A DNA stretch of 32,000 nucleotides, taken from NCBI GenBank assembly GCA_025839675.1, contig CP104013.1, forward strand, positions 780,001 through 812,000, in the 5' to 3' direction. Of the stretch, positions 1-10,674 are shown piece after piece (within the stretch, counting starts at the first letter, position 1; every line of letters starts with the position of its first letter). Origin of the DNA: Candidatus Lokiarchaeum ossiferum. GTDB taxonomy: Archaea; Asgardarchaeota; Lokiarchaeia; Sigyniarchaeales; Promethearchaeaceae. Position numbers and translations under genes: made by a program. The notes beneath the pieces were generated by a model. That model had not been told where the DNA came from. It saw nothing but the letters and a program-made list of their open reading frames with translations, and ran no database searches.

Positions 1-52
1 TGGGGCTTCTGATAGGAATGTCCAATTATTTGCAGAAAAAACCATCCATGAT

Positions 53-1642
53 GTGATGACCAATAAAGAATTAATCTCTAAAATTTTGTCCGAAGAAGTA
101 TCAATAAATCCGGATCAAAGTGTGTTAATTGATGAATTTAATCATATTAAGGTCAAAGAATTGATCGAACGGACTCAAAATGTCTGGCGAAAAATGTTTA
201 TAGCTTGTGATCAACTCCTGTTCAAAGAAGGTAAATCGACTCTCGATGCTAGTAATGAACCTATAAATCAAATAGAATTTGCTAAACAATTCTCCGACTT
301 ATTTGGAGATAAATTAAAATATGATGCAAATATAATCCAGACATTGCTTGATTTAAGTCAGATTGGAAGAAAAACGATAAGTTCCAATCACATGAAAGCC
401 TATCGGGCTGATGAGTTTGTTCTACTTCATAATGAAATGCTTTCTTTTCTGGGAAATGCAAATCCTGATTCTCCGCTAAAACTGACTCGCGACCGATTAG
501 ATTATATTAGACAAAAGGACACTTTTTCGAGTTCCCTTACCATTTTTGAGGCTCTCATGTTGGATCAAATGAATCGCTATCTTGGTAACATGTTTATATC
601 AGAAGGTGCCTTCTATGACTGGATGAGCACAGGTTGGGTGGAGTTAAAAAGTGATTTTAATTATCGGCAATGGAATGCGCGCAGTGCCCCTCTCTTCCTC
701 AACCATTACCAAGAAATGATCTTCTATGATGCTACCAAGGCAAAAACCGCCACCCTGACTCTAACGATCAATGGGCAACCCGTCCCTGTGAAAGTGGAGT
801 GTGATTCCTATTTCGAAAAGAGGTTAGTCGATACTATTGGGGACCTAATGAAGACCTATCCAGCCGCCAATGAACGCTTTTCACGGGTGTTTGGTAGTGA
901 AATTTTCAAGCATTTGCCCCATAACCTTTTGGCGACGGTGCAAAAACAAGTTATTACGCGCGGAGGTATCAGGATGGCACGATATGATCCTGATATAATT
1001 GCTGCTTACACGGGTGAATCAGTTTTCGGAATATTGCAATCCATTGGAACACTTGCGTTTACTACCTCCTCAGAATTGAAAGAGGGAAAAATCTATCTGG
1101 ATTTAGGGCTCGTGTTTGGGGCCGTGGATGAATTTCGGGGAGTAATGATCGAAGCCTTAGGGTATGACGACTATGATCAATATGGGCAGCATTATGGGGA
1201 GAAAAAGGATAACTCGGCTCTGGCCTTGTTGGACGCCCACTTCGCCCAGATCTATGTGGCGCGGGAACAGGCCCGTGATGGCGATCCTGAATCACTCTAT
1301 ACATGGTATCAGAAAAATGCGAAATATATTGGGAAGAATGCGCCATTGCTCACCGAAAGCCAATATAAGCTGTTGATGGAACTCATAATGAAGAATCCGA
1401 ATGTACCCTTTGAAGAGCTGATGTTAAATCTAGCAGATAATTTTGAAGCTTATGGATTTCAGGATATTGAATCTGCCAAAGCATTTCAAAAAATATTTGG
1501 AATTGAAAAAGGTCCTCTTGGATATAAGAGTAATGAAAAAATGGATCCATGGTGGACTAATTATCAGAATTCCAAGCAAGGGATGATAGATGGGAGAATT
1601 AATTTGATTAATTCCCAATTGCATTACTTTTGGAGGAAATAA
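53..1642 (+). CDS. Hypothetical large protein, possibly 5'-truncated by the window edge. Its C-terminal ~170 aa (CT domain) recurs in the orphan copy at 2730..3281.
   Basis: 529-codon ORF. The frame has no stop between nt 2 and the first in-window starts (GTG53/ATG56), so the gene may begin upstream of the window. No catalytic motif recognised. A GC-enriched block at ~640..1385 sits in an otherwise AT-rich gene. A T8 tract follows the stop directly. Confidence 0.8.
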   Translation: MMTNKELISKILSEEVSINPDQSVLIDEFNHIKVKELIERTQNVWRKMFIACDQLLFKEGKSTLDASNEPINQIEFAKQFSDLFGDKLKYDANIIQTLLDLSQIGRKTISSNHMKAYRADEFVLLHNEMLSFLGNANPDSPLKLTRDRLDYIRQKDTFSSSLTIFEALMLDQMNRYLGNMFISEGAFYDWMSTGWVELKSDFNYRQWNARSAPLFLNHYQEMIFYDATKAKTATLTLTINGQPVPVKVECDSYFEKRLVDTIGDLMKTYPAANERFSRVFGSEIFKHLPHNLLATVQKQVITRGGIRMARYDPDIIAAYTGESVFGILQSIGTLAFTTSSELKEGKIYLDLGLVFGAVDEFRGVMIEALGYDDYDQYGQHYGEKKDNSALALLDAHFAQIYVAREQARDGDPESLYTWYQKNAKYIGKNAPLLTESQYKLLMELIMKNPNVPFEELMLNLADNFEAYGFQDIESAKAFQKIFGIEKGPLGYKSNEKMDPWWTNYQNSKQGMIDGRINLINSQLHYFWRK

Positions 1643-1650
1643 TTTTTTTT
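1643..1650 (+). terminator. Oligo-T tract (T8) directly after the stop of the large gene
   Basis: taa + tttttttt. Archaeal RNA polymerase terminates at oligo-T. It is followed by a TATA-like tatatataa ahead of the LRR gene. Confidence 0.35.
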
Positions 1651-1674
1651 GTATATATAACGGAATGAGAAGAC

Positions 1675-2676
1675 ATGAATCAACACAATTTAAAAGGGAT
1701 TTTACCCCCATATAATGAGGTATCAGAAGAAAAACAAAAATTCCTTGTATCTATTAAGGATATTATCTTAGATGCTTGGGAAATTTCAAAAAATGGACAT
1801 CTGATGGTCTATATTGATGAGGAAAAAATCATCAGGCAATTGACAATCGAAATGAAAGAATCATCCAAACAAGCGGAAATTGCCACTTTAATTGATAAAA
1901 TCCCCCATCATTTCAAACATCTTAATAAATTAATCCTAAATGTTGTTGGGATGGAAAAAATTCCCTTATGGCTTTCTGAACTTCACAATCTTCAACTTCT
2001 ATCAATTGGAAATGAATCCTTAGGAAAAATAGATATCGAGATTTTTTCATCGTTTCCTAACTTAAGAAGTTTATATTTAAAGGGAAGTTTCTTTTTTATA
2101 CCAGAAACTATAAAAAATCTAACCGGTTTGAAGATATTAAGTATATCTAGTGTCCCAAATCTAAAATTTTTTCCAGAAGCAATAGGCAAATTAAGTACGT
2201 TAACCAATTTATATCTTTCAAAAATTCAAGTTAGAAATTTGCCTGATTCTATTGGACAACTCGAAAATCTTTCCCAGTTATCTATTCAAGAAGCTACTCT
2301 CAAAAATCTGCCTGAATCTTTTGGATACTTGCAAAATCTCCAAAAACTCACTCTTCATGAAGTTGCTTTAGAAGAACTCCCCGAATCCATTGGAGATTGC
2401 TATCGGCTGAAGGAACTAGATATTAAGGATTGTAACAATCTCACCACCTTACCCAATTCCTTAGGAGATCTGCACAATTTGGAAAGCATTCATATCTATG
2501 GGTGTTTGAATTTGGAATCTATCCCTGATTGCATTGCAAATCTTCCTCAGCTCAAGTATGTTTATTTAATTGAAAATCACAAGTTGGAAATCCCCGTATG
2601 GACGCAAGCTCTTTTACTAAAGAAATTGGAGACTTTCAATGTAGATGGTTGTAAAACCAAGTGGATGAATCCATAA
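1675..2676 (+). CDS. Leucine-rich repeat (LRR) protein, partner 1 (333 aa): ~100-aa non-repeat N-terminal domain plus ~23-aa LRR units
   Basis: Tandem LxxLxLxxCxxLxxLPxSIGxLxxL units, e.g. LPESIGDCYRLKELDIKDCNNLTTLPNSLGDLHNLESIHIYGCLNLESIPDCIANLPQLK. ATG1675 is preceded by tatatataa (1652..1660). Paralog of 3325..4257. Confidence 0.85.
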   Translation: MNQHNLKGILPPYNEVSEEKQKFLVSIKDIILDAWEISKNGHLMVYIDEEKIIRQLTIEMKESSKQAEIATLIDKIPHHFKHLNKLILNVVGMEKIPLWLSELHNLQLLSIGNESLGKIDIEIFSSFPNLRSLYLKGSFFFIPETIKNLTGLKILSISSVPNLKFFPEAIGKLSTLTNLYLSKIQVRNLPDSIGQLENLSQLSIQEATLKNLPESFGYLQNLQKLTLHEVALEELPESIGDCYRLKELDIKDCNNLTTLPNSLGDLHNLESIHIYGCLNLESIPDCIANLPQLKYVYLIENHKLEIPVWTQALLLKKLETFNVDGCKTKWMNP

Positions 2677-2729
2677 ATTTATGTTTTACCTCTTTTTTAA
2701 CCGTTTGTAAAGAAAGGCTAGGATTAAAG

Positions 2730-3281
2730 ATGATAAGTTGCCACTCCATCTCCGATTTTTATAAAAATTTGGTGGATGAATTTCAGGGAATGATGATCGA
2801 AGCCCTCGGGTATGACGACTATGATCAATATGGGCAGCATTATGGGGAGAAAAAGGATAACTCAGCTCTGGCCTTGTTGGACGCCCACTTCGCCCAGATC
2901 TATGTGGCGCGGGAACAGGCCCGTGATGGCGATCCCGAATCACTTTATACGTGGTATCAGAAGAATGCGAAGTATATTGGGAAGAATGCGCCGTTGCTCA
3001 CCGAGACGCAGTATGGGGTGTTAATGGAACTGTTGATGACCAAACCAGGGAAATCTTTTGAGTTAATGATGAAAGATTTAGCGGTAAATTTTGACTTTTA
3101 TGGGTTCAAAGATAGAAATGATGCAATTAAATTCCAAGAATTATTTGGAATTGAAATAGATAGAAACTACCTATTTACTGGTTATGGTGAAATGACCCAA
3201 TGGTGGACTAATTATCGCAATTCTAAGTTTGAAATAATTAATGATAAAATCAATCTTTTCAAATCTGAATTAGATTTCTAA
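2730..3281 (+). CDS. Orphan 5'-truncated paralog of the CT domain of the 53..1642 protein (about 183 aa from ATG2730)
   Basis: Homology to the large protein starts abruptly at VDEF (nt 2772 = nt 1124) and runs to the stop. The 14 residues MISCHSISDFYKNL before it come from unique junction DNA. The track ORF start at GTG2661 overlaps the last codons of the upstream LRR gene and is less plausible than ATG2730. Whether it is expressed is unknown. Confidence 0.6.
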   Translation: MISCHSISDFYKNLVDEFQGMMIEALGYDDYDQYGQHYGEKKDNSALALLDAHFAQIYVAREQARDGDPESLYTWYQKNAKYIGKNAPLLTETQYGVLMELLMTKPGKSFELMMKDLAVNFDFYGFKDRNDAIKFQELFGIEIDRNYLFTGYGEMTQWWTNYRNSKFEIINDKINLFKSELDF

Positions 3282-3291
3282 AGCAAGACAG

Positions 3292-3301
3292 TTTTTTTTT
3301 T
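3292..3301 (+). terminator. Oligo-T tract (T10) after the orphan CT ORF
   Basis: A run of 10 T lies 11 nt after stop 3281 and is positionally homologous to the T8 at 1643..1650. Confidence 0.35.
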
Positions 3302-3324
3302 CTATAACAAAAAATGGTGACATC

Positions 3325-4257
3325 GTGAAAACAGAAGAATTGAAACAAATTACTTTTCCATTTTCAGAAATATCTGAAAATGAAAGAAATTTCCTAATAA
3401 AACTAGATGAAATTATAGAAAAAGCATGGAAAATCAAAAAAAAATCTGGTATGATGATACGAATAAATAATTCAGGAATATTACGAACTTTAGAAATTGA
3501 TGTAGTTGAAAATGTCGATAATGTGAAATTGATTCATCTTATTTATCAAATTCCAACCTTCTTTCCTGATCTTTTTAATTTGGGATTAAATATTTATGGA
3601 TTAAAAACACTTCCCAAGTCGTTTAATATTTTTCGACAACTGAAACAAATTTATTTGGGAAATGAATATTTAGAAGAAATAAATAAGGATTTTTTTTCTA
3701 ATTTCTCTCAATTAAAGAGTTTTGCAATCCGAGGGTTAATGAAATCAATACCGGTGTCGATAGGAAGATTATCAAATCTTGAAAGATTGCAAATCTCGAA
3801 ATCACCCCATCTACATTCATTACCACCTTCAATTGGGAATTTATCTACTCTTTTTAGTATGACAATTAAGGAAGTCTCTTTAAAAAATCTTCCCGAAACG
3901 TTGGGTCATTTGCACAATCTTCAAAAACTCACCCTTCATGATGTTTCCCTTGAAGTTCTTCCCGAATCCTTGGGTGATTGTTATCGATTGAAGGAGTTGG
4001 ATATTCGGAATTGTAATAATCTTACAACCTTGCCTGATTCGATTGGTGATCTCCATAATTTAGAATCCTTAAAAATATATGGCTGTTTGAATTTAGAATC
4101 CATTCCAGATTGTATTACCGACCTCCCACAACTCAAATATGTCTATTTTGTAGAAAATCCCAAACTGGACATCCCTGTGCGGACTCAAGCCCTTTTGCTG
4201 AAAAAATTGGAGACTTTTAATGTGGATGGCTGCAAAACCAAGTGGATGAATCCATAA
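3325..4257 (+). CDS. Leucine-rich repeat (LRR) protein, partner 2 (310 aa)
   Basis: Same architecture as 1675..2676. The first 176 aa align without gaps but are strongly diverged. Exactly one 23-aa LRR unit is missing. The last ~125 aa are near-identical, including the CKTKWMNP tail. GTG3325 is the start, because ATG3314 is in another frame and hits a stop. Confidence 0.85.
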   Translation: MKTEELKQITFPFSEISENERNFLIKLDEIIEKAWKIKKKSGMMIRINNSGILRTLEIDVVENVDNVKLIHLIYQIPTFFPDLFNLGLNIYGLKTLPKSFNIFRQLKQIYLGNEYLEEINKDFFSNFSQLKSFAIRGLMKSIPVSIGRLSNLERLQISKSPHLHSLPPSIGNLSTLFSMTIKEVSLKNLPETLGHLHNLQKLTLHDVSLEVLPESLGDCYRLKELDIRNCNNLTTLPDSIGDLHNLESLKIYGCLNLESIPDCITDLPQLKYVYFVENPKLDIPVRTQALLLKKLETFNVDGCKTKWMNP

Positions 4258-4262
4258 ATTTA

Positions 4263-4269
4263 TTTTTTT
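4263..4269 (+). terminator. Oligo-T tract (T7) after LRR gene 2
   Basis: taaatttatttttttc immediately after stop 4257. Confidence 0.3.
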
Positions 4270-4282
4270 CACTTGAATTTAA

Positions 4283-4341
4283 CTGGGATGAGAAGATCAA
4301 ATATTAGCAAAAATACATGGTCTCACCCCATCTCATCCCAG
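4283..4341. other. Perfect 11-bp inverted repeat (ctgggatgaga / tctcatcccag) with a 37-nt loop, in the convergent intergenic region
   Basis: Arms at 4283..4293 and 4331..4341 are exact reverse complements. It lies between the end of the LRR array and the 3' side of the GTPase gene. Confidence 0.4.
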
Positions 4342-4674
4342 ATTTAAATATAATCGATGTAAACAATTTTTTTTTGGGTGGTGAGCAAAACCAATAGTTA
4401 TGATGTGTTGACCAATTTAATAATCGTCAGATAGGGAAAAAAAGGAATGCGCTCAAAATTATCAGTGATACACTTCTAGAGAATTATCGAAATATGTTAA
4501 GTAATAAAGAAGGAGAATGATTTCTTTTTCAAAGATAGGTATCTTTTTTATTGATTTTACATCCAATTCAAAAAATGGTAATTTTATCCTCTTTTTCAAT
4601 GAAAATTGAACGAAATTCACGATATTTCCCGAGAAATGATCTAATAATGATGCAAAAAAAATTTTTAGATACAA

Positions 4675-5625
4675 TTATATTTCAGTGGTTTTTTGTTTTA
4701 ACACGCGGATAAAGGTAGAAATAGATTCTAATTGCAATTCTTTTTTGTAAATCAATCCAAAATATAATGGTAATTTCGATGAAACTTCATCTAAATAGAA
4801 TCGGGTACTATAGATATTTAAGCCTTCGAATTGAAGGTTTATCACCGGCATGATGTTATACATCTGTTCAAATTTGGTGAAAAACTTGATGAAAAGATCC
4901 CGAATTTCGATCGCATTAAATTTTGGAGATATATGATAACCCAGCCCAAAACCTTCAGGAGTGAAAACAATTGCAGCATCCAAATCATGAGTTTCTGAAA
5001 AAACCCCCAATTGAGAAGATATTTCGTCAAAAATCTGAGGATTGTCAAGCATGCTTTTTGAGAATGCTGTAATGACCCAAACTGGAACATCTTTAGAAGT
5101 TCGATACGCTTGATAGCCAAAACCTTTGCAATTCAAGATTTTATGAGCCTGTTCTTTGAATTGGGACATATTTTTCTCAATTATGTCTTGATTGGGAAAA
5201 TCGGGATCAATCTTGTTATAAAGTATTGTAATATTAGCATCTGGACTAAATTTTTTTACAGCCTCGACAACATTTTTAAAATAAGTAAGACTTTTCTCAA
5301 TCCAATCTGAATTCTGACAATCCACAACATAAAATAATTGAGCAATTTTTTTGAAATAAAGATCGGGGGACTCGAGGTATTTCAATGTGTATCGATCTTG
5401 ACCTCCAAAATCCCAAAGAGCTAATTTATGATGTAAAAATTCAGTTACTGAACGTTCCACCTTTCGTGTTGGAGTGATATTCAGAACTGCATCAAATTGA
5501 CGGAACAGAGTCTTTAAAAGCGATGTTTTTCCCGCTGCCATTAAACCTACTACGGCGATTTTTTTGGGATCATCGGGAATATCTTGTGCCTTCTTTTGGA
5601 TTTCAGTTTTTTTTTTTTCATTCAT
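4675..5625 (-). CDS. Rag/Gtr1-family small GTPase with a C-terminal roadblock/LC7-like domain
   Basis: G1 GLMAAGKTS, G3 LWDFGGQD, G4 NKID. The stretch LALWDFGGQDRY...LFYVVDCQ...KKFSPDANITILYNKID closely parallels eukaryotic RagA (LWDCGGQD...SPDAKIFCLVHKMD, from memory). About 130 aa after the G domain have an alpha/beta pattern typical of roadblock domains (DAAIVFTPEGFGLGYH). Confidence 0.75.
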   Translation of the reverse strand: MNEKKKTEIQKKAQDIPDDPKKIAVVGLMAAGKTSLLKTLFRQFDAVLNITPTRKVERSVTEFLHHKLALWDFGGQDRYTLKYLESPDLYFKKIAQLFYVVDCQNSDWIEKSLTYFKNVVEAVKKFSPDANITILYNKIDPDFPNQDIIEKNMSQFKEQAHKILNCKGFGYQAYRTSKDVPVWVITAFSKSMLDNPQIFDEISSQLGVFSETHDLDAAIVFTPEGFGLGYHISPKFNAIEIRDLFIKFFTKFEQMYNIMPVINLQFEGLNIYSTRFYLDEVSSKLPLYFGLIYKKELQLESISTFIRVLKQKTTEI

Positions 5626-7844: not shown

Positions 7845-7987
7845 ATAACTGTTCTTTGAAGAATTGTTCTATGTCGAACAATACCATATAACATATAAAT
7901 ACTTTTTCTTATTAAAACTTTAGCCAGTTATAAAAAAATGATTAGAAGATAAAGAAAAAAATATAATTTTTGATAATAGAAAAGAGA

Positions 7988-8260
7988 TTAGACTCGTCCA
8001 ACAACTAAAATTGATTTATTTTTCTCTAGCACTTTCTTCAATTCTATGCAAATATCTTTAGAATTGCTTATTTTAAATCTTTCCAATCTAGGTGCTAAAA
8101 AGTCTGAAAAAATAATAATCCAATCTTCAAACTCCATTTTTTCATGCTTAACACTCTCATGGTAATCCTTGATCGCAAATCTCAATATGCCTTTAGAAGC
8201 TAATATGGGTTTATTTATCATATTTGCTAGAACACTTCCAAAGAGGGTTAATGCATCCAT
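7988..8260 (-). CDS. Hypothetical small soluble protein (90 aa)
   Basis: Its ATG overlaps the stop of the upstream membrane-protein gene by 1 nt (translational coupling). No motif recognised. Confidence 0.5.
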   Translation of the reverse strand: MDALTLFGSVLANMINKPILASKGILRFAIKDYHESVKHEKMEFEDWIIIFSDFLAPRLERFKISNSKDICIELKKVLEKNKSILVVGRV

Positions 8261-9135
8261 TAATTTCCTTCCTCCATCATAGTGTTTAATTCTTCTTCTG
8301 AAAGTTCTTTAGTTGGTTTATTATACCTTTTGTCACATAAGAATACCCAAGCATAATAATTCCCAACTGCGAAAAGGACTGCACAAACTATTGAAATGAC
8401 AGTAAAAATTGCAGTAACTTGTGTACTTAAAAAGTAGGTAATCCCAGATGCAATTCCTTGAATAGAAAAAATAAATGCTGATAGAGTTATAATATTATAG
8501 CGCTTCTCGAGCCAACTCTCAATTGCATATTCTTTCAAGGAAAGTAAAGATAGGTGGGAAGAATAAGCAAAGAATAGAGATACTGTGATTTTACCCAAAG
8601 AATCCAAGATATTAAATGCAATATGAAGTTCACTCCCATCATCAGACAATCTGAAAACTCCGAGAATAAAAGTAGCGACATAAAGTAGAATTATAGACCC
8701 AATAAATATTTTCGATAACATGAGGCTACTTCTATAATAAGTTTTTATAACGAATAATAAAAGAAAAATCGTTCCAATGCCCTCAACAAGAGCAAATAAA
8801 ACATATACCTGAGAGGCACTAGCCATTCCAACCAATCCAAAGGCTGAAATTGAGACTATAAGATATTTAAGGCTCTGAAGTTGGACTTCTTTTTGTCGAA
8901 TCAGGAGTTTTACAGCTGTGCCTTCCATTATGAGCAATAGCGTTATTGAAGCTATGATGTAAAAGATAACTATTGGTTCCATAGCTAACCAAATTTGAGA
9001 AAACATTAATAGTTCAGGATTAAAAAAGAAACTTACATTGATTCTAAGAAGATTTCCAAAAAAATATTTGTTAGAAGTTAGGTATGAGGAAACTGCAAAA
9101 AGAAAAAAAGACAGTAAATTTAAGAATTCATCCAA
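8260..9135 (-). CDS. Hypothetical polytopic membrane protein (about 7-8 predicted TM helices)
   Basis: Repeated ~20-aa hydrophobic stretches throughout and an acidic C-terminal tail (ELSEEELNTMMEEGN). No family recognised. Confidence 0.6.
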   Translation of the reverse strand: MDEFLNLLSFFLFAVSSYLTSNKYFFGNLLRINVSFFFNPELLMFSQIWLAMEPIVIFYIIASITLLLIMEGTAVKLLIRQKEVQLQSLKYLIVSISAFGLVGMASASQVYVLFALVEGIGTIFLLLFVIKTYYRSSLMLSKIFIGSIILLYVATFILGVFRLSDDGSELHIAFNILDSLGKITVSLFFAYSSHLSLLSLKEYAIESWLEKRYNIITLSAFIFSIQGIASGITYFLSTQVTAIFTVISIVCAVLFAVGNYYAWVFLCDKRYNKPTKELSEEELNTMMEEGN

Positions 9136-9165
9136 AAAGTAAAATAAAAAAAATGTTGATTAAAA

Positions 9166-10674
9166 CTAAGAGAAATTTTTTAAATCTCTGCAAAAAAGAA
9201 TTAAAAATTTATACAACAAGGCAACAGACTCAATATTCACTCGTTCTTCAGGAGTGTGGGGATTTTCCACCGTCGGACCTAGAGATACCATCTGAATTCC
9301 GGGAATTTTTGCCCCAATTACACCACATTCCAGCCCAGCGTGTATTGCTTCAACCACAATTTCCTTGTTAAGAATTTCTTGATAATTTTGGGTCACAAAT
9401 TTTAAGAAAGGATTATTTGGTTCAGGATTCCATCCTGGATAGGATTTTTGAATGTCGACCTGCCAATTTAAAAGATACCCTAATTGAGCCATTGTTCGTC
9501 GGAAGGCTATCAAATCTGCATCTACACTACTGCGTGCGGAAATTTGGATTGAAACTTCCGATTCGGTTGTCGAAATTACAGCCAAATTATTGGATGTTTC
9601 AACTAGACCATGAATCGAAGGTGAAAACTGTAAGGGTCCACTAGGAATTAAATTCACGAGATGAATTAGATCTGAGCTATCGGAATTGCTTAAGAGAGAA
9701 AATGGATCGCTTTCCTTAAAATTTATAACCAATTTGGGTTCATGAGGTAAATAATATTTTAAAATAGCTTCTTTTTCATTATTTAACAATTGCTCCATCT
9801 TATCACTTTGATCTTCTGAAATCGCAAAAACAACTTTGGATTCACGTGTGATTGCATTTCTTTTACTTCCACCATTCCAAAGGGCAATATATACATTAAA
9901 ATAGTCTATAATTGCCGACATACAACGTGCAACTAGTTTATTAGCATTTGCACGTGGAAGTGCAATATCTACACCAGAATGCCCTCCGAAGAGCCCCGCA
10001 ATTTTTAATTCAAAGAATTTTAAACCTTGAATTTCTTCGGATTGAAATTTCTCAATGTTCTTCCGGAAGATCATATCTCCACCTCCTGCAGAACCAATTG
10101 TTATCGCTCCCAGATCTTCCGAATCAATGTTCATAAGCAATTTGCTTGTAATTCCCAAAGCTTCAACATCAAGGTTAAAAGCACCCGTCAATCCTGTTTC
10201 TTCATCAACGGTAATTAGCAATTCAAGGGGTCCATGTTCAATATCGGGATTTTTATCAAACATAAAAGCGAGAGCTATTGAAAGGGCAATTCCATTATCA
10301 GCTCCAAGAGTAGTATGATCTGCTTCAACCCACTCACCATTACTCTGAATTTGAGCAGTTATTGGCATAGTGTCAAAATCAAACCCTTCGGGTTTATCGG
10401 TTTCACAAACCATATCCATATGCCCTTGCATCAGGAGAGCTGGGACATTTTCCATTCCAGAAGTTGCGGACTTTTTAATTAAAATATTTCCAATAGCATC
10501 TTCAGTAATTTGGAGATTAACTCCTTCGATTTTGGCACGTTCTGACACCCATTGAACAATTTTTTTTCGAATCTTTCCTTCCTTTTTGGACTCTCTTGGA
10601 GTACTGTTAAATACTTCCTCGAAAATTTGCCAAACCAATTTCGGTTCTAGACTTGTTAAAGCCATATCTATCAT
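9166..10674 (-). CDS. pepD: Aminoacyl-histidine (Xaa-His) dipeptidase, M20C family
   Basis: N-terminus LEPKLVWQIFEEV...PRESKKEG, the metal-binding LMQGHMDMVCE, TTLGADNGIA and VDEETGLTGA match PepD-type M20 peptidases over the full ~500 aa length. Confidence 0.85.
   Translation of the reverse strand: MIDMALTSLEPKLVWQIFEEVFNSTPRESKKEGKIRKKIVQWVSERAKIEGVNLQITEDAIGNILIKKSATSGMENVPALLMQGHMDMVCETDKPEGFDFDTMPITAQIQSNGEWVEADHTTLGADNGIALSIALAFMFDKNPDIEHGPLELLITVDEETGLTGAFNLDVEALGITSKLLMNIDSEDLGAITIGSAGGGDMIFRKNIEKFQSEEIQGLKFFELKIAGLFGGHSGVDIALPRANANKLVARCMSAIIDYFNVYIALWNGGSKRNAITRESKVVFAISEDQSDKMEQLLNNEKEAILKYYLPHEPKLVINFKESDPFSLLSNSDSSDLIHLVNLIPSGPLQFSPSIHGLVETSNNLAVISTTESEVSIQISARSSVDADLIAFRRTMAQLGYLLNWQVDIQKSYPGWNPEPNNPFLKFVTQNYQEILNKEIVVEAIHAGLECGVIGAKIPGIQMVSLGPTVENPHTPEERVNIESVALLYKFLILFCRDLKNFS

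Follow-up and report, generated by a model that had tools for sequence, protein, structure and literature searches.

A giant gene followed by CT and LRR genes

We analysed a 32,000-nt stretch of the genome of Candidatus Lokiarchaeum ossiferum (CP104013.1, positions 780,001 to 812,000 of the forward strand; hereafter the window), at the left end of which the 3' end of a giant gene is followed by two genes for leucine-rich repeat (LRR) proteins and by an orphan copy of the giant gene's C-terminal (CT) part. An earlier note, made from the letters alone, had pointed to a GC-rich, near-identical core shared by the full-length and orphan CT genes and had read it as a gene conversion or recombination tract, with a nucleotide-level element as the alternative. 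The parts of the array described below lie on the forward strand. The window opens inside the 'main' giant gene, the last 546 codons of which (2–1642) have 90% nucleotide identity to the 3' end of a 10,073-aa open reading frame (ORF) on the related contig L006. Within this 3' end lies the left homology arm (1124–1360), which encodes the constant N-terminal CT subdomain (VDEF...APLLTE) and contains the main copy of the near-identical tract (1160–1287), followed by the variable, AT-rich CT tip A (1361–1642), the product of which is 97% identical to the tip of an orphan on L006, E_o2. LRR gene 1 (1675–2676), the partner of tip A, is variable over its N-terminal two thirds and conserved over its last 130 codons; this conserved 3' block, delimited by the repeat search and by divergence, forms the right homology arm (type I; 2284–2687).

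A spacer (2677–2771) comes next and carries an orphan leader with an ATG at 2730, MISCHSISDFYKNL, which is conserved in the L006 orphans E_o1 and E_o3. It leads into the orphan CT gene NEF87_000632 (2730–3281), for which PGAP places the start at 2790 instead, giving a product of 163 aa. Based on the ungapped comparison, the orphan copy of the left arm spans 2772–3008 and its near-identical tract 2808–2935; composition and comparison of the tips assign 3009–3281 to the variable, AT-rich CT tip B. LRR gene 2 (identified by an exact protein look-up as NEF87_000633; 3325–4257) is the partner of tip B, and it ends in a conserved 3' block of type II (3865–4268). The array closes with a flank (4258–4329) that recurs in L006 after LRR-b, directly before a displaced older 3' end. 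As side observations, the sequence TTTATAAAAA at 2756–2765 lies ~27 nt upstream of the PGAP start, a spacing that would fit an archaeal TATA box for a leaderless orphan transcript; in the orphans of L006 the TATA-like motif is harder to make out (TTTTAATGAAAA). Both CT stop codons are followed by T runs (1643–1650 and ~3290–3301).

The 10-mer GTGGATGAAT forms the first bases of every arm, where it reads VDE (1124–1133 and 2772–2781), and it is also found, in another frame (..WMN), at the 3' end of every LRR gene (2661–2670 and 4242–4251). It occurs four times in the window, against 0.13 expected, and seven times in L006, against 0.07 expected (6379, 7936, 8047, 9658, 10013, 11550 and 11661), and was not found in the more distant loci L005 and L007–L012. 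Because it stands at arm starts and at LRR ends alike, every cassette has one and the same 10-bp direct repeat at its two ends; the repeat could be microhomology left over from cassette formation or a coincidence.

Divergence and base composition of the shared arm

We compared the two arms of the window without gaps at an offset of 1648 nt (the 1124 side against the 2772 side). Homology sets in abruptly at 1124/2772, with five differences in the 36 nt of 1124–1159, after which 127 of the 128 bases of 1160–1287 are identical to those of 2808–2935. The sole mismatch, at 1216/2864 (TCG/TCA, Ser), is synonymous, and the computed alignment thus bears out the single TCG/TCA difference that had been counted by hand between 1160–1285 and 2808–2933. 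The six differences of the next 70 nt, claimed to be all synonymous, are indeed so: mismatches at 1288, 1297, 1303, 1315, 1324 and 1345, as well as one more at 1357, each fall on a synonymous third position, and the first non-synonymous difference stands at 1359. Over the entire arm (1124–1357 against 2772–3005) there are 13 mismatches in 234 nt. The repeat search recovered the same pair of arms together with a second pair in the 3' parts of both LRR genes.

Of the codons that can change silently, the core has 42, one of them different, and the 3' flank has 36, of which 14 differ (Fisher p = 6e-5); the longest run with at most one difference extends over 42 codons (permutation p = 0.002). Between the last 130 codons of LRR1 and LRR2, by comparison, the proportion of differing sites is 0.72 for synonymous (pS) and 0.10 for non-synonymous sites (pN), in line with the earlier observation that the LRR C-terminal block, unlike the core, is rich in synonymous differences. 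Because this LRR block belongs to the same duplicated unit, the arm is far younger than the cassettes that it joins.

The repeat is not an assembly artefact: independent short-read Logan unitigs (L001–L004) match the window exactly, and we rejected that explanation on this basis. The unitigs stop 30 nt into the exact runs of the repeat, which is where a real repeat of two copies should end them at k = 31, and their breaks at 1258, 2837 and 2906 correspond to the edges of such runs. Because short-read assemblies break exactly at the arm, CT/LRR arrays are likely to be fragmented, collapsed or under-assembled in metagenome-assembled genomes of Asgard archaea.

L006, an ENA metagenome contig found by a profile search of 90%-identity clusters in which three close relatives lay on one contig, carries four further arm copies after its 10,073-aa gene, in an array of CT and LRR cassettes. 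The six arm copies from the two genomes (W_main and W_orph in the window, four in L006) give 15 pairs, across which pS is 0.04–0.26 in the core, 0.14–0.87 at 1289–1360 and 0.5–0.8 at 1361–1453, save that the orthologous W_main/E_o2 pair has a value of 0 in this last segment. In practically every one of the 15 pairs the core is 3–5 fold less diverged at synonymous sites than its flanks, the opposite of core and flanks diverging at the same rate among paralogs, which the earlier note had named as the finding that would speak against its reading. The idea that synonymous sites are frozen in the core did not hold, given that the E_o1 copy has a core pS of 0.15–0.26.

The core had also been described as conspicuously GC-rich. 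Its GC content of 0.51–0.56 does exceed that of the whole window (0.34), and its GC content at third codon positions (GC3) is 0.63–0.67 compared with ~0.28 for the other genes of the window; as a mark of the core, however, GC-richness fails, as the gene body has a GC3 of ~0.5 over at least 5 kb. In L006, the last 6.9 kb of the giant gene have a GC3 of ~0.5 throughout save one AT-rich patch, and in the window GC3 is already high from ~540 on. Because the body has this composition, the GC-richness is that of the giant gene and no special property of the core, and we set aside GC-biased gene conversion as its source, since the GC-richness of the whole body already covers that of the core. Gene-body composition ends with the core, which is followed by variable tips and LRR genes that are AT-rich like the genome, and the composition boundary marks the junction of constant and variable parts. 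The AT-rich patch that breaks the GC-rich giant-gene body lies at window 1–540 (L006 5101–5850) and has a GC3 of 0.17–0.37.

Probable cassette exchange and competing explanations

The order of genes on L006 is the end of the 10,073-aa ORF, LRR-a, orphan E_o1, LRR-b, a 63-aa gene-body fragment, orphan E_o2, LRR-c (the counterpart of LRR1), orphan E_o3 and an 861-aa ORF. E_o2 is 98% identical to the main CT of the window, and window 855–3035 aligns without gaps to L006 9744–11924 at 96.6% identity. Based on this alignment, the cassette that is fused to the giant gene in the genome of the window (B-35) is the one that stands displaced in third position in L006. There, the third cassette is preceded by the array-terminal sequence that in the window lies 3' of LRR2 and also by a 270-nt gene-body remnant with a stop codon; beyond 3008, the B-35 orphan and E_o3 have different tips. 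At the level of sequence comparison, we take this arrangement as direct evidence for cassette replacement and displacement between the two genomes, with one junction at the 3' edge of the arm. It also speaks for the earlier suggestion that the arm is the homology substrate for swapping CTs, because different CTs are fused to the giant gene in the two genomes and the breakpoints lie at the arm.

Two further observations concern the same contig and gene body. The 861-aa ORF (L006 12058–14643) overlaps the end of E_o3; over the first 58 aa it matches the giant-gene body at 47% identity, and the C-terminal ~185 aa belong to the CT family as a divergent member (hmmsearch E = 1e-19). It resembles a longer 3' end of a giant-gene paralog that was displaced at an earlier time. 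Upstream of the arm, identity between the two genomes is mosaic (88–89% at 2–301, 99–100% at 502–801 and 90% at 902–1001), which suggests further exchange within the gene body.

The orthologous cassettes of the two genomes differ unevenly. In their unique part (tip A, the intergenic sequence and the LRR1 N-terminal part), 6 of 923 positions are mismatched (0.65%), as opposed to 62 of 1,230 (5.0%) where the sequence recurs in other cassettes (p = 5e-10). Five of the latter mismatches cluster at 1267–1303, and at 1270, 1288 and 1297 the base of E_o2 is that of its neighbour E_o3 and not that of its ortholog W_main. At the sites 1157, 1270, 1288 and 1303, all four allele combinations occur in pairs only 15–130 nt apart, as in a mosaic. 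The LRR 3' blocks show a similar behaviour, falling into two deep types, with pS ~0.7 between and 0.10–0.24 within types. Because the divergence of the orthologs in the arm is raised and not lowered, the effect is the opposite of that of an extra nucleotide constraint; exchange with paralogous copies would explain both the low divergence among paralogs and the raised divergence between orthologs. Together, the difference in pS between core and flanks, the excess of ortholog mismatches in repeated parts and the mosaic sites at the 3' edge support the reading as a gene conversion or recombination tract, and we conclude, with a probability of roughly 0.8, that the core is a recombination arm in which gene conversion or crossover takes place between cassettes.

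An alternative that we consider improbable is that the identity is the passive leftover of one recent duplication, or of one cassette insertion with a crossover in the arm, without recurrent conversion. Such a history is in keeping with the single arm pair and single near-identical patch of the window and with displacement by a single integration, which is directly visible in L006, but it leaves three things out of account: the patch is flanked by more diverged homology (5 of 36 positions differ on its 5' side and 7 of 70 on its 3' side), the LRR block of the same unit has the high pS given above, and the incompatible site pairs, along with the variants that E_o2 and E_o3 carry against W_main, need more than one exchange. 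We regard it as very unlikely that the synonymous sites are frozen by selection on a nucleotide-level element inside the gene, be it a structured RNA, a DNA site bound by a protein or a second, overlapping gene. Synonymous identity is very high in five of six copies from two genomes, stop-free alternative frames are present and GTGGATGAAT is conserved at the start of every arm, all of which an element would account for. Nevertheless, the searches for a structured RNA or DNA site gave null results and lend that alternative no support: RNA folding was no better than that of shuffled sequences (z = +1.58 for the core and -0.01 for the arm), RNAalifold on the six copies found 0 compensatory pairs and a covariation term of -0.69, Rfam 15 searched with 1–4600 at E <= 1 returned no match to the arm and only a chance miRNA match at 4271–4344, and the sole inverted repeat, of 8 nt, falls outside the core and is confined to one copy. 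The four alternative-frame and opposite-strand ORFs that had been called spurious are present; in the related copies E_o3 and E_o1 they are interrupted by stop codons and substitutions alter their amino acids, and we rejected overlapping genes on the basis of these stops. In E_o1, moreover, the CT reading frame is intact while the core has four synonymous and four non-synonymous changes relative to W_main, and, as described, divergence between orthologous cassettes is higher in the arm than in their unique part.

Hardly to be expected, in our view, is the preservation of synonymous sites in a GC-rich segment by composition-driven or translational selection or by a local mutational cold spot. 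The GC3 of the core stands out from that of the other genes of the window, as this explanation would have it, yet the giant-gene body, with a GC3 of ~0.5, differs by up to 10–12% between the genomes (2–301 and 902–1001), so that a GC-rich composition alone does not prevent divergence, and the GC3-rich segment 1289–1400 already has a pS of 0.14–0.87.

Several points weigh against recurrent exchange between cassettes. The comparison comprises two genomes and six copies only, too few for a formal population analysis with GENECONV or RDP. The core of W_main is equally near to E_o3 and to W_orph, with one difference from each; because of these equal distances the data do not show genome-specific concerted evolution but only a very recent common ancestor of all arms other than E_o1. 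Recent horizontal transfer of the cassette could instead account for the low divergence in its unique part; this is still recombination at the arms and yet distinct from ongoing conversion. Finally, the evidence for exchange comes from sequence comparison.

If the core is a recombination arm, the following mechanism can be proposed. The core is the centre of a ~240-nt arm (1124–1360 and 2772–3008) encoding the constant N-terminal half of a CT domain of ~170 aa, and in each cassette this arm is joined to a variable block, made up of the CT tip and the first two thirds of the LRR gene, and then to the conserved LRR 3' block; one cassette is fused to the giant gene and the remainder lie downstream as orphans. 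The arm supplies ~130–240 nt at 94–99% identity between direct repeats 1,648 nt apart, with identity peaking in its middle and dropping both at the 5' edge and near the diverging 3' tip. Across it, homologous recombination, presumably by the archaeal machinery, may produce non-reciprocal conversion patches, most frequently in the middle of the arm, that keep the arms near-identical; such conversion would stop at the abrupt 5' edge of homology (1124), and in the 3' direction it would be held back as mismatches become denser. A crossover between the arms would fuse the giant gene to tip B and delete tip A and LRR1, and after duplication or DNA uptake crossovers could also add or displace cassettes. 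Because the variable block is contiguous (CT tip, short intergenic sequence, LRR N-terminal part), with conserved sequence on both sides, a matched pair of tip and LRR protein would move as a unit. We infer that exchange probably continues today and that CT tip and LRR protein may form a cognate effector/immunity or recognition pair; a toxin/immunity function in the strict sense is suggested by the architecture, by analogy with known systems.

The CT family, known systems and genomic setting

In an exhaustive profile search, the last ~170–190 aa of the main protein, which begin at about the onset of the repeat, formed a domain family. Its members either close long proteins (of 832, 951 and 2,296 aa) or stand alone as short ORFs, and those with a name all come from metagenome-assembled genomes of Promethearchaeota. 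At every locus retrieved, the CT gene lies directly 5' of one or two LRR genes; by synteny, LRR follows CT twice in the window and three times in L006, and also in L007, L009, L010/L011 and L012. The CT domain had no match in Pfam, NCBIfam or PDB sequences. Its AlphaFold model is confident (pLDDT 85.5), and a Foldseek search with this model against the PDB gave no match (best E = 0.26). In the model, the arm (1124–1360) corresponds to the N-terminal alpha/beta half of the domain and the variable part to its C-terminal half, predicted to be mostly helical with a short beta-hairpin. The invariant CT residues (G, I, P, L, F, G and W) point to no catalytic site. Among cassettes the CT tips are 48–70% identical, and body and arm are conserved; pairwise identities of CT tips and LRR N-termini were related with a Spearman rho of 0.10, which for only five cassettes is evidence neither way.

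The last 2,299 aa of the giant protein, which include the 546 aa encoded in the window, matched no Pfam family and contain one hydrophobic segment, which lies ~1,300 aa before the C-terminus. The 546 C-terminal residues had no match in a word-indexed protein search, and nothing was returned by scans of GTDB representative genomes with the peptide patterns YDDYDQY/YTWYQKN and then ..APLLT, or a scan of JGI metagenomes. An Ig-repeat protein (P0018) was rejected as a member of the CT family because it matches NYTWYRQNGEQIG-like repeats only.

The organisation of the locus resembles that of polymorphic toxin systems: a large protein has a conserved body and a variable C-terminal module (as in the 10,073-aa ORF of L006), a small partner gene lies, by synteny, directly downstream of each CT, orphan cassettes keep a conserved piece and cassettes have been exchanged between strains. 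Rhs loci of Enterobacteriaceae are the closest to it in layout, in that a large gene is followed by orphan CT fragments that keep a conserved upstream piece and each have a downstream partner, the shared piece is near-identical and old 3' ends are displaced downstream. Classical Rhs elements combine a GC-rich conserved body with AT-rich variable tips, and the locus described here has the same pattern. In Salmonella, a stretch of 522 bp is common to the main and orphan copies of rhs at 95% identity, evolved lineages came to use the toxin of the orphan, and homologous recombination across the shared region was the mechanism proposed by the authors (Koskiniemi et al. 2014, PMC3967940). Unlike in Rhs, there are no YD/RHS repeats or other Pfam domains in the last 2,299 aa, and the junction of constant and variable parts reads GAVDEF in place of the PxxxxDPxGL core–tip junction. 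The host is an Asgard archaeon, the partner is always an LRR protein, the toxin is only putative, all CT tips belong to one domain family, the shared arm lies inside the folded domain instead of upstream of it, and three orphans have their own conserved leader and ATG.

The orphan arrays of cdiA-CT/cdiI in contact-dependent inhibition (CDI) systems likewise place cassettes of CT and partner downstream of a very large gene (Zhang et al. 2012, as cited in PMC6393860). As in CDI and in polymorphic toxin systems in general, the cassettes present here vary between close strains and the locus forms a strain-specific island. Unlike in CDI, the translated junction carries no VENN or pre-toxin motif, the last 2,299 aa had no match to a two-partner secretion (TPS), secretion or trafficking domain, and the sequence and structure searches brought up no recognisable toxin fold; the FHA repeats and TPS domain of CdiA had no Pfam match in the 546 aa of the window or in the last 2,299 aa. 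Among archaea, the VARTIG module of Thermococcales has a large protein with a C-terminal domain made hypervariable by recombination and an organisation like that of polymorphic toxins, the function of which is given as unknown (Makarova et al. 2021, PMC8416519). Both systems are archaeal, but VARTIG consists of Ig domains (arCOG07710) with variable downstream genes, while the last 2,299 aa of the present giant protein had no Pfam match to an Ig domain and the locus combines a new alpha/beta CT domain with a fixed LRR partner, in Promethearchaeota. Because the defining domains are absent from the last 2,299 aa, the locus does not belong to the Rhs, CdiA or VARTIG families. Searches of the literature for giant proteins of L. 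ossiferum returned no paper on this locus or family, and those for polymorphic toxins in Asgard archaea returned general reviews only.

By this analogy, the locus would represent a known genetic logic, the Rhs/CDI-like swapping of cassettes, with both the protein family and the lineage being new. Contact-dependent competition systems of bacteria have the recombination-driven swapping of C-terminal cassettes as their hallmark. A bolder proposal, which we put forward tentatively and hold to be possible rather than probable, is that this is the first recombination-shuffled effector/immunity or kin-recognition system in Asgard archaea, an invention of Promethearchaeota in which a cognate cytoplasmic LRR protein might read the swappable CT of a ~10,000-aa protein and the arm might serve as a built-in specificity switch. 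If true, the arm would change specificity both among strains and inside a single culture. Few Asgard archaea are in culture, L. ossiferum being one of them, and with an uncharacterised protein family and a constant LRR partner the locus offers a concrete, testable entry to how L. ossiferum-like archaea compete with or recognise their neighbours.

A second L. ossiferum genome (CP163304.1) is without the locus, and its homology to the window (95–96% identity) resumes only at 4751, in the neighbouring small-GTPase gene, which makes the array a strain-specific island. Next to this Arf/Rag-like GTPase gene (compared over window 4258–4750), CP163304.1 carries a helix-turn-helix gene and five SBP_bac_5 genes instead of the giant-gene/LRR array. 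A second indel between the strains covers window 7942–9166, with ORFs that have no Pfam match. In two distant loci of Promethearchaeota (L009 17048–19236 and L007 1237–3615), the CT gene has two LRR genes in tandem behind it, and no orphan CT separates the two; those of L009 are 55% identical to each other, and such tandem genes may be extra (orphan) partner genes.

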